A stretch of DNA of 64,000 nucleotides from a virus (taxonomy: Duplodnaviria > Caudoviricetes), in IMG/VR virus record IMGVR_UViG_3300023218_000062. The stretch is one strand, 5' to 3'. The translations under genes were made by a program, and so were the position numbers. The notes under the pieces are model-generated. The model did no database searches. It had not been told where the DNA came from and was given only the letters and a program-made list of their open reading frames with translations. The stretch's first letter is position 1; each line of letters opens with the position of its first letter. This document shows, one piece after another, positions 26,940 to 49,056 of this stretch.

Positions 26940-28379
26940 ATGGACGATAAACAAACACTAGTAGAAAATTGGAATGAGACCAAGGATGTCCTTCTTAGCG
27001 GGCTTAAGCCTTCACAGAAAGAAATCGTTGGGCCTCTTCTAGAAAACCAGCGCAAGCATATGTTGAATGAATCTGCTGCACAGGGTGCGGTACAATCTCA
27101 TGATGTAGCAAACTTTCGTAAAACATTGCTTCCGATGATTCGCCGTATTATTCCCGGAACAATCGGGAGTGAAATCGTAGGTCTTCAGCCTATGTCAGGA
27201 CCTGTATCACTTGTTTATACGCTGAGATACAAGTACGAAGAAGATATGACTCATAATCCTGATCGTTCACCATTTGGTGGATTTGATATCGAACCGGGGG
27301 ATGAAGCTTTTGGAAATGACAAGTTGATTCGTCAGTTCTATGCTGGACAGGTTGCAGAATCAGGTACACCATTTGAAGGTATTGATCAAACTGCAGGGGC
27401 TTCTGGTATTGCAGGGCCAAATGCTGCTGAAGCTGATATTGACGCTGATACAGCCGATGGTCAGGGTTGGCACTCTGAAGAAGACGTAACCACATATGAA
27501 ACTGGAACTACACTATTCGGTGAGCCAGTTGGTGGATCGTTGAAGGGTGGTTCTGGTAGCTTGATAGAAGGTTCAGGCGGACGTAAGATGACCCTAGAGA
27601 TCATCAACCAAGCCGTTGAAGCTCATACCCGTAAGCTACAAGCAGGTTGGACAATGGAAGCAATGCAGGACATGGATAGCCAGCATGGTATCGATGTTGA
27701 GTCAGAGCTTACCAAGGCACTATCTGCTGAAATCGTGCAGGAAATTGATGCTGAAATCATCACTGACCTTCTTTCACTAGCAGGAACAGTCAGAACATAT
27801 GATTTTAACGCAACAGGTGGTTCTAATGGTTATGCACCAGCCTTCGTTGGTGACCGTTTCGCTAACCTAGGCGTTCGTATCAACGAAGTTGCAAATGAGA
27901 TTGGCCGTAAGACACGTCGTGGAGCGGGTAACTATATCGTTGTATCACCAATGATTGTTTCTGTTCTACAGTCTGCAGCTAAAGCAGTATTCGCTCCAGC
28001 AGTTGAAGGTAGCTTCAAAGGACCCAACAACACATATCTAGCCGGTATTCTAAACGGTCAGATTAAGGTCTACAGCTACTTGTGGAACGCTGCACAGCCA
28101 ACTGATGGTGAAGTATTTAGTGCAGGTCAGGGTCTTGGAAATGATCAGGTCCTAGTTGGATACAAGGGTGGTAACGGTGAAGTAGATGCCGGTTACTGGT
28201 ATGCACCTTACATCCCACTGATGAGTACAGGCGTTGTTGTTAACCCAGTTACCTTCCAGCCTGTAATGAGTCTAATGACCCGTTACGGTAAGGTTGCTCT
28301 AACTGACACGACAACATCTCTCGGGAATTCTGCGGACTACTATGGTAAAATTAATATTACTAACCTAGCATTCATTTAA
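26940..28379 (+). CDS. gp23: Major capsid protein
   Basis: LQPMSGPVSL, RKLQAGWTMEAMQD, WYAPYIPL, MTRYG motifs. Confidence 0.97.
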   Translation: MDDKQTLVENWNETKDVLLSGLKPSQKEIVGPLLENQRKHMLNESAAQGAVQSHDVANFRKTLLPMIRRIIPGTIGSEIVGLQPMSGPVSLVYTLRYKYEEDMTHNPDRSPFGGFDIEPGDEAFGNDKLIRQFYAGQVAESGTPFEGIDQTAGASGIAGPNAAEADIDADTADGQGWHSEEDVTTYETGTTLFGEPVGGSLKGGSGSLIEGSGGRKMTLEIINQAVEAHTRKLQAGWTMEAMQDMDSQHGIDVESELTKALSAEIVQEIDAEIITDLLSLAGTVRTYDFNATGGSNGYAPAFVGDRFANLGVRINEVANEIGRKTRRGAGNYIVVSPMIVSVLQSAAKAVFAPAVEGSFKGPNNTYLAGILNGQIKVYSYLWNAAQPTDGEVFSAGQGLGNDQVLVGYKGGNGEVDAGYWYAPYIPLMSTGVVVNPVTFQPVMSLMTRYGKVALTDTTTSLGNSADYYGKINITNLAFI

Positions 28380-28513: not shown

Positions 28514-30121
28514 ATGAAAAAAGAATATTATGATTATATTGTTAACGAAATAAAACTAAGGCCCAAGAATATAGATTTGGGCACAAATAATGTACAGGAT
28601 ATAGAATGTCTTTTATGTGGTAACACATTTAAGGCAGGCGTGAAAGGTAAGGTAAATAATTATAGAAAACATGGGATGAAAGGGTGTAAAGAATGTACTT
28701 CAATCCAAAGATATGAAAATATAAGAAATGATAGAATAAAAGAATTAGAGGAAAAATTTGAGCTATATAATATTGACCCTAAGACTGTAAATAATATGTC
28801 TATGGTTAAAGTTCGCAATAAAAAATGTGGTCACTTTTTTAAAGTAAAATACGGAAATCTATTAAATCGTGACGTAAATTGCCCCATATGCAACACAGAA
28901 CGAAAAAGAGAGCAATTTAGACAATTTAATGACGAGCGCCATGAAGAGTCATACTTATTGAAAGAAGGTTTCGACGCATATAAACAGAAAGTGTATAAGT
29001 TCACTAGAGAAACATATAGAAAACATAAAGACAAGATCAATCCTGAGAACCATACAAGAGTATTAAGTGGTGAGAAAGGCTACCATTTAGATCATATCAT
29101 ATCTGTAAGAAATTCCTTTGATTTAGGAGTCCCACCAGAAGTATGTGCAGATTATAGAAATATGCGCATGGTGAAATGGAAGGATAATAATAAAAAGTGG
29201 AAGCGCTCTTCTCTTAGAATACCAGAACCCTATTATCCATATGTTAATAATACATCAGATGAATTTATAAAAATAATGAACAATTCTGTAAAAACAGATT
29301 TTAATGCATATGTAGATTTCTCTAAATTCATGCTGACCCTATATAATGAAAAGGAAAAATTTGGTATATATTACGCTCCACTTTCTACTAATACACAGCA
29401 GATATTAGGCTCTAAGAATTATTTTAAGCAGATGAAGGAATACTTTGCTGAAAAAAGTATCACATTATTAATAATATTTGAAGATGAATGGATCAAGAAT
29501 AGATTATTAGTTATCGACAAAATACAACATTATATGAACCAGAGTGAAAAGACTACCATATATGCTAGAAAATGTGAAATACAGGAAATAGGAGTAACTG
29601 ATAAGAATAGTTTTTTGAATGCAAATCACATACAGGGTACTTGTGTAAGTCAAATAAATTTGGGGGCCTTTCATGATGGAAAATTGGTAGCAGTTATGAC
29701 ATTTTCTAAGCCTAGAATATTGATGAATAAAAAAGAGCAAGCTGGAGGCGTGTATGAACTTGCGAGATTTGCGACAGATGTACAATATCGTATACCGGGA
29801 ATTGCCTCTAAATTGTTGAAACATTTTCAAAGAAACTATAATTATAGTGAGATATATTCATATGCAGATAGGCGCTGGTCCGATGGTAACCTTTATGAAG
29901 TATTGGGATTTGAGAAAACAATTGTCAACCCACCAAATTATCATTATATTATAAACAACCAACGAAAACACAGATGGGGTTATCGAAAGGATGCTTTGAA
30001 GGAGAAATTCCCGGAGAGATATAATAAAGAGTTGACAGAATATCAAAATATGCTTGAAATGGGATATGATAGAATATGGGATTCTGGTTCGATAAAATAT
30101 GCAATATATAATAGTTATTAA
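28514..30121 (+). CDS. Free-standing homing endonuclease (zinc ribbons + HNH + degenerate Vsr-like + Mom/GNAT-like domain)
   Basis: CLLCG/GCKEC/CPIC, YHLDHIIS...NMRMVKWKDN, IFEDEW, NHIQG, ELARFA, YSYADRRWSDG. Confidence 0.75.
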   Translation: MKKEYYDYIVNEIKLRPKNIDLGTNNVQDIECLLCGNTFKAGVKGKVNNYRKHGMKGCKECTSIQRYENIRNDRIKELEEKFELYNIDPKTVNNMSMVKVRNKKCGHFFKVKYGNLLNRDVNCPICNTERKREQFRQFNDERHEESYLLKEGFDAYKQKVYKFTRETYRKHKDKINPENHTRVLSGEKGYHLDHIISVRNSFDLGVPPEVCADYRNMRMVKWKDNNKKWKRSSLRIPEPYYPYVNNTSDEFIKIMNNSVKTDFNAYVDFSKFMLTLYNEKEKFGIYYAPLSTNTQQILGSKNYFKQMKEYFAEKSITLLIIFEDEWIKNRLLVIDKIQHYMNQSEKTTIYARKCEIQEIGVTDKNSFLNANHIQGTCVSQINLGAFHDGKLVAVMTFSKPRILMNKKEQAGGVYELARFATDVQYRIPGIASKLLKHFQRNYNYSEIYSYADRRWSDGNLYEVLGFEKTIVNPPNYHYIINNQRKHRWGYRKDALKEKFPERYNKELTEYQNMLEMGYDRIWDSGSIKYAIYNSY

Positions 30122-32254: not shown

Positions 32255-35203
32255 ATGTCTATATATGATTCATTTGCAGATAAACCTAATAGAATTAGGG
32301 AAGAAGGGCAAGAAATAACATTAAGATTTTCTCGCATAGATGATAATACAGGAAAAATTACGTGGAATATACCACCCAATTTTAAAGGATGCAAAGGAGA
32401 TGGTGTTTACGACGGTATTGTAATTACAGTAAGCCGAAAACCGGCCGACTATATTGAATCTTCTCCTAAAGATGGAACTTACTACATAGGAGACAATAGC
32501 GTAGACCCTGACTTACATGCCGGTAGCAAGATTATCAATAGCGAAGAAGTAAAAGTTTTAGTAGTTGGGGCATTTTATAATGATAGAACAACTACAGAAC
32601 TTGAGGTTATGAATCTTGAGCCTAGGACGGCATATTACTTTTCGGGATATGCAGTAGATAATGTTGCTAGATATCATAGAGAGGGAGTTCATTCGTATTC
32701 CCTACCTACAGGAATTGAAGAAAGCAATGAAGAGATGCTTACACCTGCGGAGCATGTCATTGATTTAGATGATGATATAAAATTATCATCAGCAACAGGG
32801 GTGGAAGAAGGGAAGGAGTATAATATCATTGCAGACATCAATGAAGAGGAAGATGTAGAAATAAAAATAAATGGCAATGAAGCAAAAACATATGCTTCTA
32901 TGATAGAAAGTATTAACAAAAGATATATGGAACTTGACGATCCGTATTATTCACCCACCTTTCCGTTTAAAGGAGTTGTTTTTGAAATAGATAATCAGTT
33001 TTATTTATGGGATGGTGAAAAGAGAATTGAAATATTTCCATTAGAAAGCGCCACATTGCCTAACATAGCACATGAGGGTGATCTATGGTATGATACCTCA
33101 TCAGAGGTCCTTAATGAGTATGATTCTGGACAGTGGGTGCCCCAAACTGTTATAAAATATGGCTTTGATATAACGAACCCATCTGACGGCACTATATGGT
33201 TTGACGGCACAGTAGCTAGAGAATGGAAAGGTGATTTGTGGTGTGACTTGAATACTATAATAAGTACTAGAAATCCCCTCCTTCCGCCAAAATTACGGAA
33301 AAACGTTTATTGGTTCAACACTGGTACTGGAGAATTTTTTGAGAGGAACACTGAATTAAAGAGATGGGAAGATGCTTTAGTTATTCACTATTCTAAAGAT
33401 CCTGAAGATATAGATATAGGTGATTTTTGGTTTGATGAGACTAATGAAAAGGTGTTTCAATTGGTTAGTGGGTTTTTATGGGAAGAAGTTGAGAATATAG
33501 TATTTGAGGAAACCAATTCTACACCATCTTTCAATGAGGTAAATGGTGAAGAGTTTGAATATAGATATGTGATAGATGAACAGACGTTATATGAATGGAA
33601 AGCTACTGATCTTGAGTGGGTTCAAGTCCCTATCGCAATATTCCCTACTGATCCTAGAGATAGAGAGTCATGCGGCTTATGGTGGGACTCCTCACCAAGT
33701 GTGGATACCGTATTCTTATGGGATGCCATAAATAATATATGGACCCCTTCTGATGATTTTTTCCAACAGTCGAGAGACCCAGCACTCCCAGCGCTGCTGG
33801 AAGAAGGTAGCGTTTGGTATAACCCTGACAATGAAGAACTTCTAAAGATACTTAGTGAGAATTGTGAAAAAGTAGAATTTATAAATGAATCTTTTAATCC
33901 TGTTGGCGGTACTCCTATTAGTATTTTTTGGAAAGATGACGAAACATTCAAAGAATGGAATGGGACAACTTGGGTAGAATTGGACCCACAACCCCTACAG
34001 TGGGATACAGATCCTACAATTATAGATGTGGGGACATATTGGTTAGATTCTATACAGAACGTGCTGTTTGTATGGAGTGGCACTGATTGGGTAGAAGTAG
34101 AAGTTTCTGATACCGACCCCAAACCGGAGGAAGAATTTTTATGGTATAATACTGTAGAAAACCAATTATATGAATGGACACAAAAGGAACAGTGGGAGAA
34201 AACTACAGGTAAAGTATTTGTTGAATTTGTGCCTAAGAAAACTGTAGAAGGCAGGGCGCTGCTAGAATTTAAGACTCGCAAGAAGGGTTGTGATGCTATG
34301 TTAACCCTTAAGGCTCGTAAGGATAATATTCTATCAGCGTTGAAAACCAATATCCGCTATAGACATCCTAAAGAAGGGAGGGATCTAGAAGAAGGTAATC
34401 CAATGTACAAACGTCTTGGTGTTGGTGATGATGGGAGCCCAGACGAAAGAAGAGAACTTCATGACACCATAAGACAAATTTTAGGTGAACCTAGTACTAA
34501 AGTTGAACTATCAAAGTCTAATATTGATGTGTGCATAGATAATGCCCTCACACAACTTAGAAAATATGGCGGGATATCATATAAAAGAGGATTTTTTTTC
34601 TTGGATCTTAAACCCAACCAACAACATTATGTATTAAATGACCGCTGTACCGGGTTCAATGAAATTGTAGAAGTTAAAGGAGTATTCAGATTACGTAGTG
34701 GCTTTTTTCAAGGAGCATATTCAGGACATGATATTTATGGATATGCAGCATTGAAACAGTTATATACATTAGGTTCATTTGATTTATTGACCTTCCATAA
34801 TGTTTCACATTTCATTGAAGAGCTAGAAACTCTTTTTGCGACCAGAATAACGTATCAATGGGTGGAACGAAAGAGAGAACTTAGGTTACTTAATGCCATT
34901 TATCATCCAGAAAGAGTACTGGTGGATGCCAGTATTGAAAGAAGCGAACAAGATTTGATTGTAGATCGCGGAACCAAATTATGGCTACAACGCTGGGCAG
35001 TTGCTGAAGCCAAAATGATGTTATCTCAGAGCAGAGGTAAGTTTCAAACTTTGCCGGGCCCTAATGGAGGTACTGTTCTTAATGCACAAGAATTGATCAC
35101 CCAATCTGAAGCTGAAAAGGCTGTATTGATGGAAGAATTAGAAGATATGGCAATGCAGGGAGTAGAAGAAGTAGGACTGAGTGCGTATTTTGTACTGGGA
35201 TAA
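32255..35203 (+). CDS. gp13: Neck protein gp13 with long N-terminal Trp-rich repeat extension
   Basis: C-terminal WLQRWAVAEAKMMLSQSRGKFQTLPGPNGGTVLNAQEL gp13 motif. Confidence 0.8.
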   Translation: MSIYDSFADKPNRIREEGQEITLRFSRIDDNTGKITWNIPPNFKGCKGDGVYDGIVITVSRKPADYIESSPKDGTYYIGDNSVDPDLHAGSKIINSEEVKVLVVGAFYNDRTTTELEVMNLEPRTAYYFSGYAVDNVARYHREGVHSYSLPTGIEESNEEMLTPAEHVIDLDDDIKLSSATGVEEGKEYNIIADINEEEDVEIKINGNEAKTYASMIESINKRYMELDDPYYSPTFPFKGVVFEIDNQFYLWDGEKRIEIFPLESATLPNIAHEGDLWYDTSSEVLNEYDSGQWVPQTVIKYGFDITNPSDGTIWFDGTVAREWKGDLWCDLNTIISTRNPLLPPKLRKNVYWFNTGTGEFFERNTELKRWEDALVIHYSKDPEDIDIGDFWFDETNEKVFQLVSGFLWEEVENIVFEETNSTPSFNEVNGEEFEYRYVIDEQTLYEWKATDLEWVQVPIAIFPTDPRDRESCGLWWDSSPSVDTVFLWDAINNIWTPSDDFFQQSRDPALPALLEEGSVWYNPDNEELLKILSENCEKVEFINESFNPVGGTPISIFWKDDETFKEWNGTTWVELDPQPLQWDTDPTIIDVGTYWLDSIQNVLFVWSGTDWVEVEVSDTDPKPEEEFLWYNTVENQLYEWTQKEQWEKTTGKVFVEFVPKKTVEGRALLEFKTRKKGCDAMLTLKARKDNILSALKTNIRYRHPKEGRDLEEGNPMYKRLGVGDDGSPDERRELHDTIRQILGEPSTKVELSKSNIDVCIDNALTQLRKYGGISYKRGFFFLDLKPNQQHYVLNDRCTGFNEIVEVKGVFRLRSGFFQGAYSGHDIYGYAALKQLYTLGSFDLLTFHNVSHFIEELETLFATRITYQWVERKRELRLLNAIYHPERVLVDASIERSEQDLIVDRGTKLWLQRWAVAEAKMMLSQSRGKFQTLPGPNGGTVLNAQELITQSEAEKAVLMEELEDMAMQGVEEVGLSAYFVLG

Positions 35204-35206
35204 TAT

Positions 35207-36922
35207 ATGACTGATGATAATAAAGTAGACTGCTATCCAGAAGAGGAAGATACTGTTAAGGATTGTCCCGAGGGTGGTGTTATAGGTCCAAATGACCCCA
35301 CCTTCGACAATCCTACTACAAATGATCCCTGTGCAGACAACCCACAGAATCTACCATGCGCTACTGAAGAGCCGTGCTATCCATGGCAGTTTACAAATTT
35401 TTCGGAAGAAGTTTGTTCTATAGAAGGTTATATAGAAGCATCTATTAATATAGGTGGTGCGGTAGTAAATGTACATAAATTGTTGGGGGTTCATGAACAG
35501 AATAAACTAGTAGACGCTACTGGAGTGGGTAAGGCTATATCGAACGGCGACCATCCTAATTTTCCAGCAAAAAATGCGTTTGACAAATATGACACAGAAT
35601 GGAGATCTGAACAGCTAGGTAAAGATGTTGTCCGTAAATCTTATATAGGGTACGACTTTGGCCCCATAAGGTTAGACAATGGGCGAGTTAGATATTCGAT
35701 AGAGACCTTCGTAAAAAAGAATGTTGCTACAATACGATTACAACAAGGTTGTGATTCTAAAAATAGAGTTACCAAGGTTCGTTTGGAACGTTCATACGAC
35801 GGTGAAAAATGGTATGGTGTGTCAGCAATTAAAATACCAGATTGTGAAGGTCTAGTAACTATACATTTTAAATCGACGGCACCCGCCAGATATTGGAGAG
35901 TTCGTCCGTTAGAATTTAACGGTGGAAAAACAGACTATTGGGCAGTCAAGGCATTACAATTATCTGAACATGAAAAAACAGACATGAGAAATATACAAGA
36001 CAAAGTATTTTTGGAAAATAGAGATCGAAAATATTCAAAAGAATCTGTGAGGATTAAAGGTTCATATGCACCAGTAGAATATTCTGCATTTCTTTCTAAA
36101 ATAGGTATGAACAGCCCGTATAATGCTGAACAATTTGTTTTTGAATTTTCGTTCAGGCAGATAGTTAGAGAAATTGGACGACCGTTAGTTATTGGTGATA
36201 TAATACAGATACCAAGTGAGACGTATTTCAATACCTCATTGGACTCAAAGCTTAAATATCTTGAAATAACAAACGTAGCGTGGGCCACAACAGGTTTTAG
36301 CCCCCAATGGGTCCCTACCATGCTTAGAGTTATTGCAGAGCCAGCAATGGCCTCTAGAGAGACGCAAGATATATTTGGGAAGCTTACCGAAGACTTTGAT
36401 GAAGTTGGAACATCAGATATTAATGATGGAAATAGAAGAAAGAAAAATTATCAAGACATACATGATGTTTCTGATGCCGTGGCGTCCGAAGCTAATACAC
36501 AAGTCCCCCACCGAGGACAGGATTATGCTAATAAACAGAAACTAAGTAATGAGTTGCGGCAGTGGATAGAAGAAGATTTAAATGGAAAGAAAAACCCCGA
36601 CAGGCTTGAACGCAACAGACCGGTTTGGGCAATCGATGGATTACCCCCTAATGGAGAAGATTTCACGGAAGGTGAAAAATTTCCTGATAATCCAAAAGAT
36701 AGGGACTATCACAGGCTAACATATGATAGTATAGATAAAAACCTATCCCCTGCTTTATATAGATTTTCTAAAGCAAAAAATAAATGGATTTATATGGAAA
36801 CGGATCTGCGGCATGAATGGAAAGAAACTAAAGCTACTCTGACGAGCTTTCTTAATCCTGCTGGCGAGAACAAGGACTTCCGTAGTGATGTGGATGAAAT
36901 TGAGGATAATTTGGATGACTAA
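35207..36922 (+). CDS. gp14: Neck/head-closure protein gp14 with inserted discoidin (F5/8 type C)-like domain
   Basis: NIQDKVFLENRDRKY gp14 motif; AKNAFD...WRS...YIGYDFG...RYWRV discoidin pattern. Confidence 0.7.
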   Translation: MTDDNKVDCYPEEEDTVKDCPEGGVIGPNDPTFDNPTTNDPCADNPQNLPCATEEPCYPWQFTNFSEEVCSIEGYIEASINIGGAVVNVHKLLGVHEQNKLVDATGVGKAISNGDHPNFPAKNAFDKYDTEWRSEQLGKDVVRKSYIGYDFGPIRLDNGRVRYSIETFVKKNVATIRLQQGCDSKNRVTKVRLERSYDGEKWYGVSAIKIPDCEGLVTIHFKSTAPARYWRVRPLEFNGGKTDYWAVKALQLSEHEKTDMRNIQDKVFLENRDRKYSKESVRIKGSYAPVEYSAFLSKIGMNSPYNAEQFVFEFSFRQIVREIGRPLVIGDIIQIPSETYFNTSLDSKLKYLEITNVAWATTGFSPQWVPTMLRVIAEPAMASRETQDIFGKLTEDFDEVGTSDINDGNRRKKNYQDIHDVSDAVASEANTQVPHRGQDYANKQKLSNELRQWIEEDLNGKKNPDRLERNRPVWAIDGLPPNGEDFTEGEKFPDNPKDRDYHRLTYDSIDKNLSPALYRFSKAKNKWIYMETDLRHEWKETKATLTSFLNPAGENKDFRSDVDEIEDNLDD

Positions 36923-38842: not shown

Positions 38843-39373
38843 ATGTTAAATATCATGAATGATGATGAAGATTATAAAAAAGTTGAAACTGAAAAGAAAG
38901 CACATGCTTTAGAAAAATGGTTAAACTTGGAAGAAGGATCAACAGAAGTTGATAAGGTAAGGTACGAGTTTCCCAGAAAGGAATCTGAGAGGTATGATCC
39001 CAAAGATCGGGAAATAGAGGAGCAAGCTCATAAAATATTTGAAGAGGCCATGGCAGGCTATCATACATTAGAGTCGCTACTTGAAAAAATCGAACCCAAA
39101 TACAGGGCTAGGATGGCAGAAGTAGCATTAGCTTATTTAAATACAGCACTTAGTGCCACTGATAGCAAGAGTAAACAAAAAGAATCATTAGAAAAGCTCA
39201 GATTGCAAGAGGAAAAAATAACCAGAAACAGCCAGAAAAAACCGGGTAGTACAATATTTGTTACAGCAGACAGAAATAAATTACTAAAAGAATTGAGGAA
39301 TCAAGAAGATGAGGAAAACGGCGTCATTGATGTAAGTCCAGATGATATGAAGGAGGAAGAAAACGATGATTGA
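38843..39373 (+). CDS. Probable terminase small subunit (gp16-like)
   Basis: Helical core with ARMAEVALAYL and C-terminal TIFVTADRNKLLK resembling T4-like gp16. Confidence 0.55.
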   Translation: MLNIMNDDEDYKKVETEKKAHALEKWLNLEEGSTEVDKVRYEFPRKESERYDPKDREIEEQAHKIFEEAMAGYHTLESLLEKIEPKYRARMAEVALAYLNTALSATDSKSKQKESLEKLRLQEEKITRNSQKKPGSTIFVTADRNKLLKELRNQEDEENGVIDVSPDDMKEEENDD

Positions 39374-40181
39374 TGCTAATCATAGGAAAGATCAAATAAT
39401 AAAATTGATTCGAGAATGTATTGTATCATTGCGACAAAATGGAACAATTTTTATAAATGAGGAAAGGTACGAAGACATATTAAATTTCATTCCAACTATA
39501 AAATTATTATGCAACTTTTTGACAAAAGATTCAAATAACTGTGAAATATATTGCGAAAGAATAAAAGACACAAATAATATTGTTGTTTACAAGGGAGACT
39601 TTGATCATCTTGGGGAATTATATAATATAATTTGCTCAGATACTGTAACATTTTCCGGAACAATAGGCGTCCAACAGGTTGAAAAGGATGGGGGAGTTTC
39701 AGCGCATATGGATTACCTTAGATTATTTCTTGAGCCAAGAGGATTGGATTTTATAGCTAAGAATTTGGATCTTCAAAATAAAGATGTAAAAGATGAATCA
39801 AATGTTATAAAATTATATATGAATTTATATGCGAGATTAAAAAGATATTTTGAAGATTTTCCTATGGCGATGTATTCCTTAATGACAGGAATTAAAAAGG
39901 TATATGAGCTTCCTAACCGTGGGATAATAATAACACCAGATAAATTTGAAATGGTAGATTTTAGAAATTTTAAGAATGTAAACCTTATTAATAAATCACA
40001 GGATTCCTTCACGTATAAATTATCTGATAATACACCAAATTTGAAAATTTACCATGAAGGTATTAAACTAATGCATCTTAGAACCAAAATAGATTATAAA
40101 AGCAAAAAGTTCAGACTTCGTTTTATGATGGAAACGGGCAAGAATTTTTTTAAAGTATTTGAAAAATTATCGGAGAACTAA
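39366..40181 (+). CDS. Hypothetical protein
   Basis: 271-aa ORF. Confidence 0.6.
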   Translation: MIDANHRKDQIIKLIRECIVSLRQNGTIFINEERYEDILNFIPTIKLLCNFLTKDSNNCEIYCERIKDTNNIVVYKGDFDHLGELYNIICSDTVTFSGTIGVQQVEKDGGVSAHMDYLRLFLEPRGLDFIAKNLDLQNKDVKDESNVIKLYMNLYARLKRYFEDFPMAMYSLMTGIKKVYELPNRGIIITPDKFEMVDFRNFKNVNLINKSQDSFTYKLSDNTPNLKIYHEGIKLMHLRTKIDYKSKKFRLRFMMETGKNFFKVFEKLSEN

Positions 40182-40184
40182 AAA

Positions 40185-41891
40185 ATGGTATTTACAAGAT
40201 TTGAAAATATGGAAGATTTTTTAGCTAAGTATAAAGCTGCGCATAAGTCAAAACTTAAAATTGAAGAATTGGCTTATATAATGAATGTAAAGCCTGATAC
40301 TATAGCCAGAAGAAAAATAACAGTCAAACATCATATGGGAGTTGAACTTCCGCAATTAAAAAGGTATGGGGGAGATTTAAAGAAAGTAAATTCTGTTATA
40401 CCGTCAGAAGAGAGTAATGAAAAATTTTGTAGAGAATTAGCCAAACTGGAAGAAGCAAACAAAAGGTTTGTAGTTGAAGAAAAGAGAGAAAAACGTAAAA
40501 TTTATGTTATAACGTCAGCCCAAAATGCCACTCCGATATTTACAAGCTTTCTAGATTGTATAAAGGTTTATCTCAGGGAACGGAACGCCGAACTTATGGT
40601 TATTCCTAATAGATATCGAAACCCGACATCAATATGGTCTGATATGAATAAAGACAATGAATGGTGGGATCACCGAATTCAAAAATATTTGGTCGAAAAA
40701 AGAGTTAAACTCAACAACAATATTGATATAATGGGGAATATAAAAATACAACCCACTGCAGTTAACCCATTAAGTGGTTTTGAAACTTATACCGGAGAGT
40801 CTTCTGCCATATTTGGACATCCGTCAATTCAATTGAAGAGTGTTCCAACTCCAGCCAAATCCATGCCTAAAATATTATCTACTACAGGTTCAATAACACA
40901 ACCTAACTATACAGATAGTAAAGCGGGACACAAAGGAGAATTTAACCACTGTTATGCAGGGACTATTGTGGAAATAGATGGTGACGCTTTTTATACTAGA
41001 CATATTCATGCAAATGATGATGGTGAATTTTATGATTTAGATCGTTATTATACTGCGGATGGATCTCGTAAAACAGATTCGATTCCTGCACTTATAACGG
41101 GAGATATACATGCAGTATTTCATGATGAAAATGTAGAAAAGGCAACATATACCAACGACGATTCTATAGTTAACACACTAAAACCAGAAAATTGGGTTAT
41201 TCATGATTTAGAGGATTTTTATTCTAGAAATCATCACCATAGAGACAATGATATATTAGCATTTGGAAAGCATCATTTTAAAAAACGGGATAATGTTGAA
41301 GAAAGCCTACAAATTTCAGCAGATTTCGTTGATAAACATTCCAGACCTTTTATGCAAAATATAATTGTTAGGTCTAATCATGATGAGGCTTTTGATCGGT
41401 GGTTAAAAGAGGCTGATCCTAAAAAAGATCCAGAAAATGCACTTTTTTATCATTATATGAAATATTATCAATATAAAAATGTGGTAGAAACACCCACTAG
41501 CTATAAAACCATAGATGCATTTGAATTTTGGTGTAAAAATCCAGAGTCGTGTAGAGGATTAGCAAATATAGAAAATACTACATTTCTTAGTAGAGATGAG
41601 AGAGATCCTAAAAGAGTTATAAAAGGAATAGAAATAGGTTACCATGGTGATAAGGGGCCTAATGGAACACGGGGGAATTTAAGTAATCTATCTAAAATGG
41701 GACCCAAAATTATTATAGGTCACAGTCATACCCCCGGAATATTACATGGAACATATCAAGTGGGGGTCAGTGCCAGAATAGATTTGGAATATGCTTCTGG
41801 TCCTTCAAGCTGGCTTCATACACATTGCTTGATATACCCCGATGGTCATAGGACGCTAATACATATAGTAAAGGGAAAATGGAGATTATAA
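40185..41891 (+). CDS. Calcineurin-like metallophosphoesterase with N-terminal HTH-like region
   Basis: GDIH, HDLED, SNHD, YHGD, GHSH motifs. Confidence 0.75.
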   Translation: MVFTRFENMEDFLAKYKAAHKSKLKIEELAYIMNVKPDTIARRKITVKHHMGVELPQLKRYGGDLKKVNSVIPSEESNEKFCRELAKLEEANKRFVVEEKREKRKIYVITSAQNATPIFTSFLDCIKVYLRERNAELMVIPNRYRNPTSIWSDMNKDNEWWDHRIQKYLVEKRVKLNNNIDIMGNIKIQPTAVNPLSGFETYTGESSAIFGHPSIQLKSVPTPAKSMPKILSTTGSITQPNYTDSKAGHKGEFNHCYAGTIVEIDGDAFYTRHIHANDDGEFYDLDRYYTADGSRKTDSIPALITGDIHAVFHDENVEKATYTNDDSIVNTLKPENWVIHDLEDFYSRNHHHRDNDILAFGKHHFKKRDNVEESLQISADFVDKHSRPFMQNIIVRSNHDEAFDRWLKEADPKKDPENALFYHYMKYYQYKNVVETPTSYKTIDAFEFWCKNPESCRGLANIENTTFLSRDERDPKRVIKGIEIGYHGDKGPNGTRGNLSNLSKMGPKIIIGHSHTPGILHGTYQVGVSARIDLEYASGPSSWLHTHCLIYPDGHRTLIHIVKGKWRL

Positions 41892-41906: not shown

Positions 41907-42835
41907 ATGAATAAAGTAGGAAAAAATTTATATCATGTAAAAGTAGACTTCTCTGCTAGTTGGGAAAAAACGCCAATTACTAAAAAGGAAAAATATTTAG
42001 ATAGTTTACGACGGAGTTTAAAACACAATTTTCCAGAGTACTCGTGGATAGTGACGGATGATAGGATAAGCATAGAAAGTATTTCTCCAACCGACGCACC
42101 AGAACTTTATGAAGTGGATGAATTATACAACCATCAACAGCTTATGTTAGATAACATGAAATCTGATGGTAATACTATTATTGAAACGTCTAGACGATCT
42201 ATACCCTGCTGAAATATATTAAATATATATTAGAACATAACGAAGGCTATCTTATTCGGTACAACGGACCAAATTCATATTTTACTAGTGGTACATTTCA
42301 AAAACTAGAGAACCTGTTAAGGTCTGATACGACTATCTTTTCCCCGCCTGATTCGGAATATAAAATAATAAAAAATGAACTGAGTTATAGGGGTAACACC
42401 GTAAGAACACAATCTGGTAATGATAATGGTGACATTAGGGGAATGCGATATAATGGAGTAATAGACATTTATGATAATGTACGTATAGATAATAAATTTT
42501 TTACTAAGTTAAGCGACAAACCAATTGTAGAATCTTCATGTGATGGAAATCATAAAATTATATGTATGCGTACTGGAACCCCTGATAGTTTATATAGAAA
42601 AGCACTATTAACTGGAGAATTAGGTAATATAAAATTCAAGAACAAATTGAAATTAGATTATACTGAGTTAGATTTATTAAATGATAGAGAAAGTGACATA
42701 CTAAAACTTTCAGATAATAGAAAATATGAACACCTTAAATCTACATTGGGAGAAGAAAATTTTGAGCAAGAATATGGTTTAAAATTGGAGTTTTCTAATA
42801 TCTCGCCATATTATTATGCTAAAACAAAATTTTAA
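41907..42835 (+). pseudogene. Frameshifted terminase-ATPase paralogue
   Basis: ORF 41907..42212 ends LYNHQQLMLDNMKSDGNTIIETSRRS; -1 frame open 42194..42835 ends TLGEENFEQEY; both align by eye to TerL, Walker A GKT missing at the junction. Confidence 0.55.
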
Positions 42836-42916
42836 AGTCTTCTCTTTAAGGTCTTCTCTTTAAAGTCGTTTATTTAAAACAATAATAAATATCTGTGACC
42901 CTTCATAGATATTTGC

Positions 42917-43537
42917 ATGAGTAGACGTAGAGACCCTAGATTAAAAAAAGCACATGAAGAAATAGAATTTGATCAGAGTATGGTCAGAGAACTCATGCGC
43001 TGTTCTACTGATCCAAAGTATTTTATAAAAAATTATATCAAGGTTAAACACCCCAAAAGGGGTAAAATTCCTTTTGCATTGTATGACTATCAGGAAGAAA
43101 TGGTAGATCTTTATAATAGTGATGATGATGTAATTATTATGAGTGCCAGACAAACAGGTAAAACCGAATCAATTTGTGCCTATCTTCTTTGGTATGCAAT
43201 ATTTAATGAAGATGTAACAGTTTTGGTAGTATCTAATAACTCTACTAATGCGATGGAAATTATTTCAAAAGTTCAATATGCATATAAAGAATTGGATAAT
43301 TGGATTAAACCCGGAATTGATGATGATTCATGGAACAAGCACGAATGTAAATTTGATAATGGCTCAAGGATAGTTTCTACTACTACCACTGAAGATTCTG
43401 GCCGAGGTATGGCGATATCGTTATTGTATTGTCATCATAAAGATTCTACTGTTACTGTACGAGATAAATTGACTGGCGAGGTTAAAGAGATTACACTAGA
43501 AAAGCTTTATGATGATTTGTCTAATGGAAAAGAGTGA
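42917..43537 (+). CDS. gp17: Terminase large subunit fragment A (171-aa extein + 35-aa IntN1)
   Basis: LYDYQ adenine motif, SARQTGKT Walker A, SGRGMAISLLY then CHHKDSTV intein block A. Confidence 0.92.
   Translation: MSRRRDPRLKKAHEEIEFDQSMVRELMRCSTDPKYFIKNYIKVKHPKRGKIPFALYDYQEEMVDLYNSDDDVIIMSARQTGKTESICAYLLWYAIFNEDVTVLVVSNNSTNAMEIISKVQYAYKELDNWIKPGIDDDSWNKHECKFDNGSRIVSTTTTEDSGRGMAISLLYCHHKDSTVTVRDKLTGEVKEITLEKLYDDLSNGKE
43430..43534 (+). mobile_element. Split intein 1, N-fragment (35 aa)
   Basis: CHHKDSTVTVRDKLTGEVKEITLEKLYDDL then stop. Confidence 0.85.
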
Positions 43538-45164
43538 AATAATAGAATATATTGAAAAAAAGAGGAAAATATCAAACAAATTTACCAAACCTCCTAAAGA
43601 ATTTGTTGATAGTTTAAAAAGACATACGTCGCATTTAAAAATTTGTGATAGAACGCCAGTAACTGCACAACTCATATGGCATTTTGAATATAATAAAGAC
43701 ACGCCATCCTGTCAAGAATGTGGTGTTAAAAATGTTAAATGGAATGAAGCAAAAAGAAATTATAGATCTTTTTGCTCGCCAAAATGCGCAAATAACAACA
43801 AGCATAAAAAAGAAAAAATAAAAAAAACCCAAGAAGAAAATGGGGGACATCCCTCTATCAGACCTGAAGTACAGAAACGATCAAAAGAAACTAATATGGT
43901 TAGATATGGAACACCATATATCTTAAAAAATAAAAGCATACGAGCTAAAGCAATTAAAACTAATTTAGAAAGATATGGTTTCCCATCTTATACCCAAACA
44001 CCTAAAGCACGAAAGGAAAAAAGTGAATGGCTGAAAGACAACCCAGATCACATGAAATTAATGCACCAAAAATCTAAAGAATATAAACAAACAGAAGAAT
44101 ATAAAAATAATTATAGGGATACATGTATAAAAAGGTTAAATATAAATGTAAAGAATGAAAGCGAGTTTAAAAATTATTTAAAAAAACAACATATAGAGAA
44201 TAAAAAAACCGCTACAGAGATATCTCAAGAAATAGGGATGCATATTAGTAGTGTTTGCAAATGGTTAGGAAAGATGGATGTTGATCGTAAATATTATTAC
44301 ACATCAACAGAACAAAATGAAGTATATGATTTTTTAAAAGAATATGATGTAGATCTACGATCTAATGTCAGAGATGTCATCAGTGGGATAGAATTGGATA
44401 TATATGCACCAGATAAAAAAATCGCAATAGAATATTGTGGGCTATATTGGCATTCTGAGATACATAAACATACAACATATCATAGAGAAAAATATTTGAA
44501 ATGTAAAGAACAAGGAATAAAATTAATAACCATATTTCAGGATGAGTGGTTACATAAAAAAAATATAGTAAAAAAAATGTTATTGGCAAAACTTGGTCTT
44601 TTATCTGATACTAAATTGTATGCTAGAAATACTTATTGCAAAGGCGTCTTGGATTATAAAAATGTTGAGAATTTTTTAGAGCGAAACCACATTCAGGGGA
44701 GGTCTAGTGGATCATTTTACATAGGGCTGTTTGATGATTCAAATGAATTAGTTGCTATTGGGGTTTTTAGGAAAAAGTCTGAATGTGAATATGAATTGAC
44801 ACGATATGCTACTAGTACTTTAGTTATAGGTGGATTTTCAAAAATATTGAAAGGGCTTGAACGGAAAATCGAAAAGGGTAAATCGGTTATAATTTCGACC
44901 TTTGCAGACCTCAGATATTCAGAAGGAAATCTATACCAAAAGACCGGTTTTAATTTGGTAAAAGAATTAAAACCTGATTACAGTTTTGCTAAAAGAGATA
45001 TCAGAATGCATAAATTTAATATGCGAGAACTAGTACGAGAAAACTCGAAAGAGTTAGAGAATGATAACTATTCTATAAATAAAATAGCCAGCATATTAGG
45101 GTATTATAAAATATATGATTGCGGGAAACAAAAATACACAAAAACAATCACTGGTAGAAAATAA
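43509..45164 (+). CDS. Free-standing Hef-like homing endonuclease between IntN1 and IntC1; likely start ATG 43523
   Basis: ELDIYAPDKKIAIEYCGLYWH, IFQDEW, NHIQG, ELTRYA, STFADLRYSEGNLY, IYDCG. Confidence 0.8.
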   Translation: MMICLMEKSEIIEYIEKKRKISNKFTKPPKEFVDSLKRHTSHLKICDRTPVTAQLIWHFEYNKDTPSCQECGVKNVKWNEAKRNYRSFCSPKCANNNKHKKEKIKKTQEENGGHPSIRPEVQKRSKETNMVRYGTPYILKNKSIRAKAIKTNLERYGFPSYTQTPKARKEKSEWLKDNPDHMKLMHQKSKEYKQTEEYKNNYRDTCIKRLNINVKNESEFKNYLKKQHIENKKTATEISQEIGMHISSVCKWLGKMDVDRKYYYTSTEQNEVYDFLKEYDVDLRSNVRDVISGIELDIYAPDKKIAIEYCGLYWHSEIHKHTTYHREKYLKCKEQGIKLITIFQDEWLHKKNIVKKMLLAKLGLLSDTKLYARNTYCKGVLDYKNVENFLERNHIQGRSSGSFYIGLFDDSNELVAIGVFRKKSECEYELTRYATSTLVIGGFSKILKGLERKIEKGKSVIISTFADLRYSEGNLYQKTGFNLVKELKPDYSFAKRDIRMHKFNMRELVRENSKELENDNYSINKIASILGYYKIYDCGKQKYTKTITGRK

Positions 45165-45474
45165 TAGATATGAAATATTAACACCAAATGGATGGGAAGA
45201 TTTTTTAGGAGTAACAAAAAATCAAAAAGATTTTGAATCTATAGAAATAGAGACTAAATCCGGAAAAACAATTCACTCAACTAAAAATCATAGACATTGT
45301 TCAAAATCTGGTGAATATATTCCGGTTAATGAATTTAAAGAGAATGACGAAATTCATACTACCGAGGGATTAGAAAAAATAATACATATTACAGAAAAAA
45401 ATCTCAGTGAGACTTATGATATATTTAAAACTGATTCTAATACTGTAATTGTGAATAAAGTATACACCCATAAT
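45115..45474 (+). mobile_element. Split intein 1, C-fragment (120 aa)
   Basis: ILTPNGW, block B STKNH, TYDI, terminal THN followed by Cys+1. Confidence 0.85.
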
Positions 45475-46119
45475 TGTGACGAACTCGCATTCGTTAAGTC
45501 CAGTATACAGGAAAAGTTCTGGACATCTATATCTCCAACTTTGGCTACGGGAGGAAAGTGTATAATATCTTCTACTCCAAATGGAAACTCAAATTTATTT
45601 GCAGAATTATGGCGGGGAGCAAATAATGAGATAAATTCGTTCAAATATAAGCATGTTCCATGGGATGCCCCACCGGGTAGGGATGAAGAATTTAAACGTC
45701 AGCAAATAGGGAAGATCGGTAAAAGAAAATGGTATCAAGAGTATGAGTGTTGCCATCCGACCTCGTTAATAGAGTTGAGCGACAATGATGAACGCATGTT
45801 TGTTAAAGTACCAATTTCTTTAGCATATGAGTGTCTACGCAACAATAAAGATATATTTAATTTATCACCACCGTGCCTGACTGGAAAATATGTCATTTCT
45901 CCATTAGATGGAAATAAGTATTGTAGAAAAAACGGTAGATTTTTGATGCACCTTAAGGAAAATGGATATATATCATATGAAGATTTTTTTGAAAGTTTAT
46001 TCCCCCAGCACAAAAAAGTCTGTTCCTATTGTAGAAAAACAGCTTCTTTCAACAATTCTACCATGAGTTATTTACGAACATGTGGGGATCGTGTATGTGT
46101 TGGAAAAGAAACATCTTAG
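45115..46119 (+). CDS. gp17: Terminase large subunit fragment B (IntC1 + 91-aa extein + IntN2 with endonuclease remnant)
   Basis: YTHN|CDELAFV (Walker B), ISSTPNG, WYQEYE|CCHPTSLI. Confidence 0.9.
   Translation: MIAGNKNTQKQSLVENNRYEILTPNGWEDFLGVTKNQKDFESIEIETKSGKTIHSTKNHRHCSKSGEYIPVNEFKENDEIHTTEGLEKIIHITEKNLSETYDIFKTDSNTVIVNKVYTHNCDELAFVKSSIQEKFWTSISPTLATGGKCIISSTPNGNSNLFAELWRGANNEINSFKYKHVPWDAPPGRDEEFKRQQIGKIGKRKWYQEYECCHPTSLIELSDNDERMFVKVPISLAYECLRNNKDIFNLSPPCLTGKYVISPLDGNKYCRKNGRFLMHLKENGYISYEDFFESLFPQHKKVCSYCRKTASFNNSTMSYLRTCGDRVCVGKETS
45748..46116 (+). mobile_element. Split intein 2, N-fragment fused to an endonuclease N-terminal remnant
   Basis: CCHPTSLI...ISLAYECL (~30 aa), then Cys-rich CSYC...CGDRVC tail. 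Confidence 0.75.
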
Positions 46120-46176
46120 GACACCATAATTTGCAAATGTTGGATAGTAGAGAAAATAGAAGGAAGAGTTTCAAAT

Positions 46177-46518
46177 ATGAATAACTTGGCGTTCAATGAT
46201 AATAACTGGAAAATAAAATCAATCAATGGCTATGAATCTTTTACAGGAATAGCTAATATGGGAAGTAAGAAAATTTATGAAGTAAACTTTTCTGATAATA
46301 CTAAAATTAAGGTTACTAAACACCACAAATTCATTAATACGAACCTAGATGTGATTGAAGTTATTAATTTAAAATCAGGAGACCAACTATTATCAACAAA
46401 TAGCAATGTTGTTAAAATAGTCAACGGCATACATAAAACAGATGAAAAAACAGACGTATACGATGTAATTGAGTCTTCCAGTAATATGTTTTTTTTGAAT
46501 GGTGTATTAAGTCACAAT
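46177..46518 (+). mobile_element. Split intein 2, C-fragment (114 aa)
   Basis: IKSINGY, block B VTKHHKF, VYDV, NGVLSHN followed by Cys+1. Confidence 0.85.
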
Positions 46519-47322
46519 TGTCGCTTTTTATCAGAAGATCATACTCTTATTGATACCATGATCATCAACAACATTGAAAATGAAATGGATGAGAAATATA
46601 AGGATAACGGCGGAGACCCACCAGTAGCATTCAAGATTGGAGATCTTGAATTCTTTAAGAAGATAAATAAATCCATGGCATATTTAGTGTCTGTTGACGT
46701 TGCATCAGGATCAGGAAGTGACTTTTCTGTTATTGAAGTAACGGAATTTCCGAGTATGGAACAGGTGTTGGAATTTAGATCTAATAACACAAATGAAAAA
46801 TTTTTATATTCCAGACTTAAGAATATTCTCCTATTTTTGCAACAAAATAGTAAAGAAGTCTATTTCTCTGTAGAGAATAATGGATTGGGTGCAAGTATAT
46901 TGGCATTGTATGAATATGATGAATCACCACCGCAAAGCGCATACCTCATTTCTGATAGTAACAACAAGAGGCTAGGTCTTTCAATGTCTGAAACAACTAA
47001 ACGTACAGCTAGTATGAAACTTAAAAATATGATTGAAACAAGATCATATAAATTTTATTCTAAACAAATAATTAAAGAACTAAAGAGCTATACGCGTCAA
47101 GGCGCCAACTTTAAGGCAGAGGTGGGATCTACTGATGACACTATATCAGCATTATTAATCCTAATGAGAATGTTAGAAGAAATGGCTGACTATAATCCAT
47201 ATGCGTTCGATAAGATTTATAATATAAAAGGACAGGATGATAAACAGGAAGAATTTGATGAAGAATTTGTAGACGATCCTAAGACACTAGATGATATGCC
47301 GATGCCTATTAGTATAGCCTGA
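46177..47322 (+). CDS. gp17: Terminase large subunit fragment C (IntC2 + nuclease domain)
   Basis: LSHN|CRFLS, VDVASGSGSDFS, VENNGLG, DDTISAL. Confidence 0.92.
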   Translation: MNNLAFNDNNWKIKSINGYESFTGIANMGSKKIYEVNFSDNTKIKVTKHHKFINTNLDVIEVINLKSGDQLLSTNSNVVKIVNGIHKTDEKTDVYDVIESSSNMFFLNGVLSHNCRFLSEDHTLIDTMIINNIENEMDEKYKDNGGDPPVAFKIGDLEFFKKINKSMAYLVSVDVASGSGSDFSVIEVTEFPSMEQVLEFRSNNTNEKFLYSRLKNILLFLQQNSKEVYFSVENNGLGASILALYEYDESPPQSAYLISDSNNKRLGLSMSETTKRTASMKLKNMIETRSYKFYSKQIIKELKSYTRQGANFKAEVGSTDDTISALLILMRMLEEMADYNPYAFDKIYNIKGQDDKQEEFDEEFVDDPKTLDDMPMPISIA

Positions 47323-47360
47323 AGATTTATATAAATAGAACATAATATATAATGTTATGA

Positions 47361-47918
47361 ATGAAACTAGAATCTCTATTTTTATTTGAAAGGACAATGG
47401 GTTCTTTAGTATCGGTGACTAGAAACTCATTTGGTCCCGATAGAGACACTAATTCTAATGCGGTACAAGTTAAGGATGTACAATATATACCATTGGTTGA
47501 GCAAGGAATGATGCAAGTTAAAGCTAGGACCTTTAGTGGCCCTGATGCTAATGAATATCAATCTATCATATCGATAGATGATGTTGAATATATAAATGAA
47601 GAAGAATTTAATAATATGCAAGGAACGAGCGAGGTAGTATTTGAACTTATATCTTCTGGTGGAACGCCATTTTATGTTAAAGATAATAGAACAAATAATG
47701 ATGTAAAGGTTAGATGTACTTGTGAGGATTTTAGATGGAGATTTGCCAAATATAATTATAATGATCAGAGTCTACAAGGTGACCCACCAGAAGCGTATGC
47801 GAAGAAAACGGATAGACCCTCTGTGAATCCACATAATACACCGGGAGTTTGTAAACATCTAATTAAACTTAAGAAAGAATTAGAAAGAGACGATTTTTTT
47901 AGAACAGTGTTGCAGTAA
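47361..47918 (+). CDS. SWIM zinc-finger protein
   Basis: VRCTCEDF...GVCKHL; late promoter at 47330. Confidence 0.7.
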   Translation: MKLESLFLFERTMGSLVSVTRNSFGPDRDTNSNAVQVKDVQYIPLVEQGMMQVKARTFSGPDANEYQSIISIDDVEYINEEEFNNMQGTSEVVFELISSGGTPFYVKDNRTNNDVKVRCTCEDFRWRFAKYNYNDQSLQGDPPEAYAKKTDRPSVNPHNTPGVCKHLIKLKKELERDDFFRTVLQ

Positions 47919-48066
47919 TACATTCAAGACTATATAATGTTCTAAGAACATTGGATACATCCTGTATCCATAGAAAAAGGCACATGGGGTGCCATAGAGA
48001 TAGTACGATTAGAAACGATACTAGACAGCCTAAGAAACTTAAGAAATTTAAGAAAGGAGATTAAAT
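47910..48066 (+). promoter_or_regulatory. gp32 promoter and structured leader with tandem repeats
   Basis: TTGCAG-N17-TATAAT (47910-47938), two hairpins, TAAGAAA x3 at 48031/48040/48049 abutting the GGAG RBS. Confidence 0.65.
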
Positions 48067-49056
48067 ATGGCTAAAAAATTAACGATGAAAGAAATTCAAG
48101 AGTTAGCAAAAAAGAAAACTTCTGGTGGGGATAAACAAAAGTTTAAGAACAGTGATATATATCCATTTTGGCTAATGGCGGAAGATGAAATCGCTAAGGT
48201 AAGATTTCTTCCAGATAAAAATAAAGAAAATGTTCTTCCATTTATAGAAAAATTGGAGCATAAATTAACGATAGGCGGTAATATTAGAAAAATTCCATGT
48301 CCTAAAATGTATGGACATAAATGCCCTATTTGTGACTTATCTCAGGAATACTATAAATCAGAAGGGGATGATTCTAGTAACGGAAAATACTACTACCGTG
48401 ATCGGATGCATTTAATTAGAGCAATTATAATAGAGGATCCTCTTCCACCTGATTCTGAAACGGGAGAAACGTATGTAGGAAAGACTGCAACACTGCAATT
48501 AGGCTTTCAAATATATGAAAAGATTATGGAGCAATTAGGAACATTTTTCGACGATGACGACATGCCACCATGGGATTTTGATGAGGGGTATAATTTCAAT
48601 ATTAAAAAAGTGAAGCAAGGTAAATATTTTAAATATGATATAGGATCATCATTTGACCGTAAACCTAGTTCTATACCTGATGAATATTTGGAAAATGTCG
48701 AGCTTATAGATTATAGAACTCTTCTACCAGAAGAGATTACTTATGATAAAGCTAATGAATTTCTTGAGAAGCACATGTCTGGTGGTGTGGACGATGAAGA
48801 TAGCTTAGAGAATAAAAAGGTAAAGTCACTAGATGGCGCTGAAAAACGCGCAGCAATGCTGGCACGTTTAGAAGGTAACTTTGAAGAAGATGAAGAAGAT
48901 GAAGAAGATGAAGGTGAGGAAGGTGAGGATGATGAACAGGATGATGAACAGGATGAAGCAAAAAAAGCAATAGAAGAAATTGCTAAAGAGGCTGAAGACG
49001 ACGACGAAGATGCTGAATTACAAGCAATAATAAACCGCCGAAGAAAGAAATCTTGA
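48067..49056 (+). CDS. gp32: Single-stranded DNA-binding protein
   Basis: KVRFLP, CPKMYGHKCPIC zinc site, GYNFNIK, acidic tail. Confidence 0.88.
   Translation: MAKKLTMKEIQELAKKKTSGGDKQKFKNSDIYPFWLMAEDEIAKVRFLPDKNKENVLPFIEKLEHKLTIGGNIRKIPCPKMYGHKCPICDLSQEYYKSEGDDSSNGKYYYRDRMHLIRAIIIEDPLPPDSETGETYVGKTATLQLGFQIYEKIMEQLGTFFDDDDMPPWDFDEGYNFNIKKVKQGKYFKYDIGSSFDRKPSSIPDEYLENVELIDYRTLLPEEITYDKANEFLEKHMSGGVDDEDSLENKKVKSLDGAEKRAAMLARLEGNFEEDEEDEEDEGEEGEDDEQDDEQDEAKKAIEEIAKEAEDDDEDAELQAIINRRRKKS

Follow-up and report, generated by a model that had tools for sequence, protein, structure and literature searches.

In a 64,000-nt stretch of DNA from an uncultured virus (IMG/VR record IMGVR_UViG_3300023218_000062; Duplodnaviria, Caudoviricetes), referred to below as the window, the only recognisable large-terminase (TerL) gene is spread over three open reading frames (ORFs) of one strand. 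Comparison with uninterrupted relatives makes it likely that the three encoded polypeptides (A, B and C) are joined by two atypically split inteins, which would trans-splice them to a single TerL of 529 aa. We infer that both splicing reactions occur, in trans and without cross-reaction between the two inteins. In the proposed mechanism the three proteins would be made separately, each short N-terminal intein part (IntN) would dock on a long, partly folded C-terminal part (IntC) and so complete the HINT fold, and two class-1 reactions (Cys1, TxxH, His-Asn, +1 Cys) would link A to B and B to C.

The locus comprises four head-to-tail ORFs on the + strand (translation table 11): A (42917-43537), the free-standing homing endonuclease gene H (43509-45164), B (45115-46119) and C (46177-47322). 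ORF A (206 aa, stop TGA; Pfam Terminase_6N at E 1.2e-6, above cut-off) carries the N-extein of 171 aa (42917-43429), with Walker A (RQTGKT) and the end ...ISLLY, followed by IntN1 of 35 aa (43430-43534). ORF B (334 aa, stop TAG) starts with IntC1 of 120 aa (45115-45474), its N-terminus MIAGNKNTQKQS being kept in the relative P0003 as MTAGKRNTEKSS, and continues with the central extein of 91 aa (45475-45747), the core of IntN2 (~43 aa, 45748-45876) and an 80-aa remnant of a homing endonuclease (45877-46116). The central extein provides the remainder of the ATPase core, from the Walker B Asp-Glu (CDELAF) over an SSTPNG motif to the end of the ATPase domain (...QEYE). ORF C (381 aa, stop TGA) consists of IntC2 (114 aa, 46177-46518) and the C-extein (267 aa, 46519-47319), which begins CRFLS and holds the RNase H-like nuclease domain; its Pfam matches, Intein_splicing (E 1e-5) and Terminase_6C (E 0.022), are both below cut-offs. 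The lengths given in the preliminary description of the locus, 171 + 35 aa for A, 120 + 91 + 123 aa for B and 114 + 267 aa for C, are exact.

The principal evidence comes from the restored extein. Cutting at Cys172 of A, after THN and before Cys212 in B, and after SHN in C yields a joined protein of 529 aa in which SLLY-CDELAF and QEYE-CRFLS are re-established, as originally proposed, with gapless alignments at both junctions. The joined exteins match an intein-less metagenomic relative of the same length (P0008, 529 aa) end to end with 94.1% identity and 0 gaps, and the junction strings ISLLYCDEL and WYQEYECRFLS are the same in that relative. By segment, the identities are 97.7% (N-extein, residues 1-171 of P0008), 95.6% (central extein, residues 172-262) and 91.4% (C-extein, residues 263-529); several more intein-less relatives are also 529 aa long. 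Against the 550-aa TerL of Xanthomonas phage Xoo-sp13 the joined protein shows 50% identity over the whole length, again ungapped at both junctions (GMAISLLYCDELAFVK and WYQEYECRFLSEDHTL), and the C-extein taken separately is 41.5% identical to this protein and 42.7% identical to that of Stenotrophomonas phage CM1. The Walker A, Walker B and C-motif ATPase and the RNase H-like nuclease domain of a T4-type (Terminase_6) protein are complete only once the three exteins are joined.

Each of the two interrupting elements has Cys at position 1, TxxH in block B, His-Asn at its end and Cys at +1. In A (Cys172) and in B (Cys212, which opens IntN2, CCHPTSLIELSDND...) the first Cys stands directly after the last extein residue according to the gapless alignment. 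Block B reads T56-K-N-H59 in IntC1 and T47-K-H-H50 in IntC2, and block G reads THN before Cys in B (H119-N120) and SHN before Cys in C (H113-N114). Among 91 homologues of IntC1 the block B His is invariant and the Thr is present in 89%; the +1 Cys is invariant in the family. IntN1 fits a consensus built from the IntN1 tails of 23 relatives (C-x4-5-S/T-x-VTVR-D/N-K-x-TG...ELY), and the pattern of the IntN2 core is that of the IntN2 tails in 37 middle pieces from relatives. From these residues and proportions, both elements are classified as class-1 inteins of the atypically split type (short IntN, long IntC with block B), for which splicing is predicted. As a separate observation, 74 of the 91 IntC1 homologues (among P0003-P0120) end in Ser-His-Gln before the Cys instead of His-Asn, and the T4-like branch of the family seems, in these sequences, to use a terminal Gln as a rule.

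Comparisons with inteins of known structure point in the same direction. IntC2 matches the solved consensus TerL intein CatC (6DSL_B, E 1.6e-7) and, more weakly, the DnaE and gp41-1 inteins. IntC1 alone matches solved inteins weakly (E 0.01), and a profile of 32 IntC1 homologues matches both the gp41-1 intein (E 1.2e-12) and CatC (6DSL_B, E 1.6e-12). On the gp41-1 intein the profile covers everything from residue 29 to the end and thus identifies IntC1 as a HINT domain that lacks only the first ~28 residues, in keeping with the position of the split; the missing start would be supplied by the 35-aa tail of A. The two IntC parts share 28% identity (E 1e-9), and the short IntN peptides gave no meaningful match in a search of PDB. 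Modelling of IntN2 (residues 201-260 of B) with IntC2 (residues 1-125 of C) gave a high docking score, the best of three controls remaining near zero, at a mark that was attained by 51/78 solved complexes and by 2/108 mismatched pairs. The modelled contacts of IntC2 involve residues 213-221 and 234-242 of B. Since a like complex (6DSL) is already solved, this score expresses likeness of the interface rather than binding, and it supports a predicted docking of IntN2 on IntC2.

At site 1, the break separates the Walker B strand (ISLLY) from the catalytic Asp-Glu, and the halves are on separate polypeptides: A stops at TGA, H lies in another frame and B in a third. H, which encodes 551 aa, overlaps ORF A on one side and ORF B on the other and matches PHROG 3339 'homing endonuclease' over its full length (E 7.9e-100). 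In Pfam it matches DUF7487 above cut-off and REase_MTES_1575 below cut-off (E 8e-7), and we regard it as a putative Vsr-like nuclease with a Vsr/MTES_1575-like region and predicted activity. Within this gene, contigs from two sequencing runs (X2 and X3, see below) carry a joint skipping 126 nt (43829-43956) on a short anchor (23 nt), which may derive from a repeat or from another organism. A second allele of site 1 is seen in six relatives (P0079, P0228, P0268, P0281, P0298, P0304), in which the intein is inserted four residues earlier (HN followed by C-L/V-x-L-D-E-F vs. HN followed by C-D-E in the window).

Site 2 has a different history. The preliminary description had taken all of B beyond the central extein as IntN2; this part does begin with Cys212 and is intein only over its first ~43 residues, its last 80 aa being the N-domain of a homing endonuclease with a four-Cys Zn ribbon, fused in frame. 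The remnant is 44% identical (E 9e-23) to residues 15-94 of a free-standing 510-aa nuclease whose gene is located, in another frame, between IntN2 and IntC2 on a 244-kb phage contig (L010); this site-2 nuclease is in turn 37% identical to H over 333 aa. The comparison indicates that the nuclease gene of site 2 has collapsed here, with the N-domain fused to IntN2 and the body gone. The two elements would therewith represent different stages of the homing cycle, the nuclease of site 1 being intact and that of site 2 deleted except for the Zn-ribbon N-domain. Between B and C there is a single TAG (46117-46119) followed by a 57-nt spacer (46120-46176) that is open in the common frame of B and C and contains a Shine-Dalgarno sequence (AAGGAAGAG, 46160-46168) 8 nt before the ATG of C. 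Three relatives (L004, L006, L010) encode IntC2 in a separate ORF whose start coincides, in the alignment, with the N-terminus of C, and this agreement together with the Shine-Dalgarno-ATG arrangement supports an independent initiation of C.

The DNA of the locus was identical across the TAG in contigs of three runs (X1-X3). The possibility, raised in the preliminary description, that the stops are read or assembly errors is hereby narrowed: all three runs belong to one study and may be the source of the window, and their agreement excludes a one-off assembly error but not a shared one. Short contigs of X2 (depth 2.5) and X3 (depth 25) additionally contain an exact joint from 45747 to 46519. 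The 771 nt that it skips (45748-46518, 257 codons) are exactly intein 2, from the Cys1 codon through the terminal Asn codon; therefore an empty site-2 allele coexists with the occupied one (in X3, depth 25 for the intein-less joint vs. 18.7 for the intein-bearing form). The empty allele confirms the borders of intein 2 at the DNA level and fits a mobile element.

Several points weigh against a terminase assembled in this way. Across the family the IntN1-type and IntN2-type peptides follow much the same general consensus, and a cross-reaction between the two inteins is conceivable on their sequences. ORF B, IntC1 included, has zero Pfam intein matches, and an AlphaFold prediction for the read-through form of intein 2, computed from the single sequence, was uninformative (pLDDT 35). 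The C-terminus of IntN2 is burdened with a foreign domain of 80 aa, which makes it longer than any characterised atypical IntN known to us and might slow or hinder intein assembly. The look-up of a suppressor tRNA and of a second terminase covered 64 kb of the genome. Finally, B and C share a frame, with only the one TAG and 19 sense codons between them, and TAG is a rare stop in the window (3/51 called genes).

This last observation leads to the alternative that site 2 works as an unsplit element: the TAG would be read through or suppressed, a contiguous intein of 257 aa (HINT with a Zn-ribbon insert) would cis-splice, and TerL would be made from two polypeptides. The frame identity has a chance of ~0.07 by a rough estimate, and two relatives show comparable arrangements: in one (L003) the same IntN2-Zn-ribbon fusion is followed by an in-frame TAG of its own and by more nuclease-like sequence, and in another (L009) the N-domain of the nuclease comes in frame behind the TAA of the middle piece, with no ATG of its own. 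General recoding of TAG was considered and rejected, as the window is densely tiled by full-length genes under table 11, with conserved late genes spanning the full length of their Pfam profiles, as a UvsX-like gene is terminated by TAG with a second stop immediately after it, and as no tRNA was found within the 64-kb window; the same facts count against read-through of this particular codon. Deletion of the nuclease body accounts for the shared frame of B and C, the strong Shine-Dalgarno sequence and ATG of C are placed where the separately encoded IntC2 ORFs of relatives begin, and the same intein family is, judged from the ORF layouts, unambiguously split in L004, L006-L009 and L010 (in L004 the middle piece ends with TAA and the next piece begins 4 nt on in another frame). 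On balance we consider read-through unlikely.

We find it very unlikely that the locus is a decaying gene, in which one or both inteins no longer splice and the genome is defective or uses another terminase. Such decay would be in line with the collapse of the site-2 nuclease gene onto IntN2, with an intein-2-less allele that is at least as abundant in X3, and with the fact that the visible part is a quarter of the genome. Nevertheless, catalytic residues are intact in both inteins, the exteins are 91-98% identical to an intact relative without any frameshift, the same sequence was assembled at depth 7-31 in three samples, and an intein that outlives its nuclease is what the homing cycle leads one to expect, as exemplified by the gp41-7 locus (PMC2677866).

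The probability that the three fragments act as a non-covalent complex without splicing appears smaller still. Split proteins can stay functional, and intein halves would hold the pieces together; yet the site-1 break interrupts the Walker B strand immediately ahead of the catalytic Asp-Glu, and the nucleophiles and His-Asn are conserved in both inteins and in their family, a conservation to be expected only under selection for splicing. Homologous TerL split inteins do splice in vitro, according to a passage of a review (PMC11766414). Removal of the interruptions as RNA introns, or their origin as assembly artefacts, has no supporting point that we could find and can practically be dismissed, given that no Rfam intron family matched at E up to 1 in the region 42000-48200, that the intervening sequences are in-frame HINT halves rather than intron structures, that the contigs of three runs are identical and that the same architecture occurs in many independent metagenomes.

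A search of related genomes, as suggested in the preliminary description, showed these pieces lying in different frames in some relatives and separated by nuclease genes in others, in support of a TerL joined from three polypeptides. Among the best 120 clusters of matches to B (at 90% identity), 37 are middle pieces (IntC1, central extein and IntN2, the latter mostly of 28-36 aa), 53-54 combine IntC1 with the entire remainder of TerL, 16 are intein-less and 6 extend from the N-part through IntN2. In a library clustered at 50% identity, 886 matches to B were found at E <=1e-10, with at least 23 middle pieces among the best 150 representatives. The double-split layout in three fragments, first thought to be unusual, is so in the searched literature and is frequent in metagenomes. 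In four loci (L006-L009) the order is TerL N-part, nuclease, middle piece, nuclease, TerL C-part, with the same middle piece on 14 contigs. The N-domain of the site-2 nuclease has no ATG in two of these T4-like three-piece loci (L009:5739-6782 and L006:5928-6782); it is in frame with the middle piece and begins immediately behind that piece's TAA. One further locus (L004:2679-6837) encodes a terminase in four pieces, with a third atypically split intein in Walker A (GK before the first Cys, HN before Ser): the first piece reads ...PRQSGK up to the Cys and the next one ...VSHN up to SWIAG..., with a Vsr-like nuclease gene behind. Sites 1 and 2 of this locus are without nuclease genes, and neighbouring ORFs, in different frames, overlap by 1 nt or are 4 nt apart. 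Among 50,697 deposited phage records, queried with B and with P0037, no three-piece terminase was found; the matches were either intein-less genes or genes with a cis-intein near Walker B (Salicola phage SCTP-2, Campylobacter phages and Desulfovibrio phage 7757, the last with an intein three residues further on).

The census also bears on how two such inteins might coexist. In the window, IntN1 and IntN2 share 6 of their first 30 residues. Across the family, the pattern VTVR-N/D-K-x-TG is present in 22/23 IntN1 tails at site 1, in 0/37 site-2 tails of middle pieces and in 16/45 site-2 tails of proteins with an empty site 1. The association between the IntN subtype at site 2 and the occupancy of site 1 has a Fisher p of 2.6e-5, for counts that are phylogenetically clustered and not independent, and P0286, a middle piece from the more distant representatives, is an exception. 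The subtype bias could reflect selection against cross-reaction, which we offer as a lead and not as a result. A bolder and improbable extension would see the two inteins as a co-evolved, mutually orthogonal pair that gates assembly of the motor as a post-translational timer or condition sensor, the site-2 intein, having no nuclease gene, persisting as a hitch-hiker on gene conversion by the site-1 nuclease; in an empty allele this nuclease would cut only 273 nt from site 2.

Many components of this system are already known, and the preliminary description was right to place it among fractured phage genes and atypically split TerL inteins (PMC2677866, PMC11766414, PMC13014065). Dassa, London, Stoddard, Schueler-Furman & Pietrokovski (2009) described a fractured gp17-like terminase in which a free-standing nuclease gene separates the two halves of a split intein on the same strand and an unusual break leaves a C-part of 122 residues that lacks only motif N1; they also defined the Vsr-like (EDxHD) nuclease family and reported a gp41-7 locus in which the split intein is kept and the nuclease gene lost (PMC2677866). 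Site 1 of the window has the same layout as that terminase (N-part with IntN, nuclease gene, IntC with C-part, one strand), and site 2 is nuclease-less as is the gp41-7 locus. The differences are that the published terminase has one split intein and two pieces vs. two inteins 91 codons apart and three pieces in the window, that its nuclease gene follows after a gap of 27-51 nt whereas H overlaps both neighbours, and that, unlike there, a nuclease remnant is fused to IntN2 in the window.

According to passages of PMC11766414 and PMC13014065, the AceL-TerL, GOS-TerL and Cat-TerL inteins (Thiel 2014; Bachmann & Mootz 2015; Stevens 2018) have an IntN of 25-37 aa and an IntC of 104-115 aa, are split after the first helix and use Cys1 and a +1 Cys. 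The window inteins share with them the TerL host, the short IntN and long IntC, Cys1 and the +1 Cys; site 1 (35 + 120 aa) and site 2 (~43-aa core + 114 aa) both fit this type, site 2 adding the 80-aa remnant, at a distance of about 25-30% identity. The published inteins have been studied singly as tools, and no statement of two in one terminase was found. The CatC chain ends SHA-CE, which fits the extein of site 2 (C-E/R-F-L) better than that of site 1 (C-D-E), and thus the published TerL tool inteins, on this sequence comparison, probably derive from site 2.

Two cultured phages, Yersinia phage MHG19 (OQ331036) and Vibrio phage Va1 (MK387337), have a TerL in two pieces with the same site-2 insertion at the ATPase/nuclease boundary and a first ORF that ends in a short IntN, with a single intein vs. 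the two of the window. In MHG19 an ORF of 236 aa, GIY-YIG-like by eye only, lies between the halves; in Va1 the nuclease is fused to IntC, in contrast to the remnant fused to IntN in the window. The Va1 ORF (L025:2852-5137, 761 aa) comprises a Zn-ribbon/Vsr-like nuclease, IntC and the TerL C-part, a mirror image of the IntN-nuclease fusion described here.

Proteins with several inteins are known in which cis-splicing elements occupy active-site motifs of one essential conserved enzyme. These are single polypeptides, whereas the middle fragment of the window must enter two intermolecular reactions, so that cross-reaction would give dead-end products. No description of terminases in three pieces was found in full-text searches of the literature, although the original AceL-TerL, GOS-TerL and Cat-TerL papers may carry a remark on them, and no published case of natural obligatory double trans-splicing was found. 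Atypically split TerL inteins, fractured genes and Vsr-like nucleases are thus already known components; what appears to be undescribed is a terminase with two of these inteins, a middle fragment that would have to react twice and an IntN fused to a nuclease remnant.

If splicing proceeds as proposed, two separate trans-splicing reactions, both on a central segment of 91 residues, would be needed to build an essential viral motor. The two inteins would be a candidate tool, as a natural pair of the atypically split type (IntN of 35 to ~43 aa) that must avoid cross-reaction in one cytoplasm, and three-segment protein ligation or labelling requires exactly such a non-cross-reacting pair. The locus also displays a homing cycle within one gene and population, with an intact nuclease at site 1, a nuclease collapsed onto IntN at site 2 and, in the same samples, an allele whose site 2 is empty. 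Where one undivided terL is assumed, annotation pipelines would under-call or mis-call these terminases, which are used as marker genes, and the layout is common in metagenomic phages.

As to the genomic setting, the window lies on an AT-rich contig of ~246 kb that belongs to an uncultured jumbo phage. The identical B protein is recorded on a contig of 246,638 bases; the locus is therefore that of a jumbo phage whose single recognisable terL is divided into three pieces. A T4-type portal gene and a gp23 major capsid gene (26940-28379) are present within the window, the closest TerL proteins are those of Xanthomonas phages Xoo-sp13 and XacN1, and the gene order 3' of TerL (small ORF, gp32-like SSB, UvsX/RecA) is the same as in Xoo-sp13. 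A megablast of the locus against deposited phages gave no near-identical DNA, and in IMG/VR neither an exact-pattern scan nor a first protein scan returned any match to the locus. A scan for promoters and terminators performed at chance level, with no + strand terminator from A to C.

Some additional features of the window were recorded. A second full-length copy of the nuclease family of H is free-standing just downstream of gp23 (28514-30121; PHROG 559/3339, E 1e-73 and 1e-67). A candidate reading of the 57-nt spacer as an 'HNH tail' of this ORF was not reproduced, since the C-termini of the nucleases (...RIWD-C/S-G...) match no frame of the spacer. Upstream of A, two short ORFs (41907-42835) occupy the place where Xoo-sp13 carries an annotated 'terminase small subunit', which itself resembles a TerL N-terminus (27% identity, E 5e-15 vs. 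fragment A). The first of the two ORFs matches the Xoo-sp13 protein faintly (E 0.04), and on these similarities the pair may be a broken TerL-N-like paralogue. Two other pairs of genes in the same frame are each split by a single TAA (32255-36922, 982 + 571 aa; 39366-41891, 271 + 568 aa).

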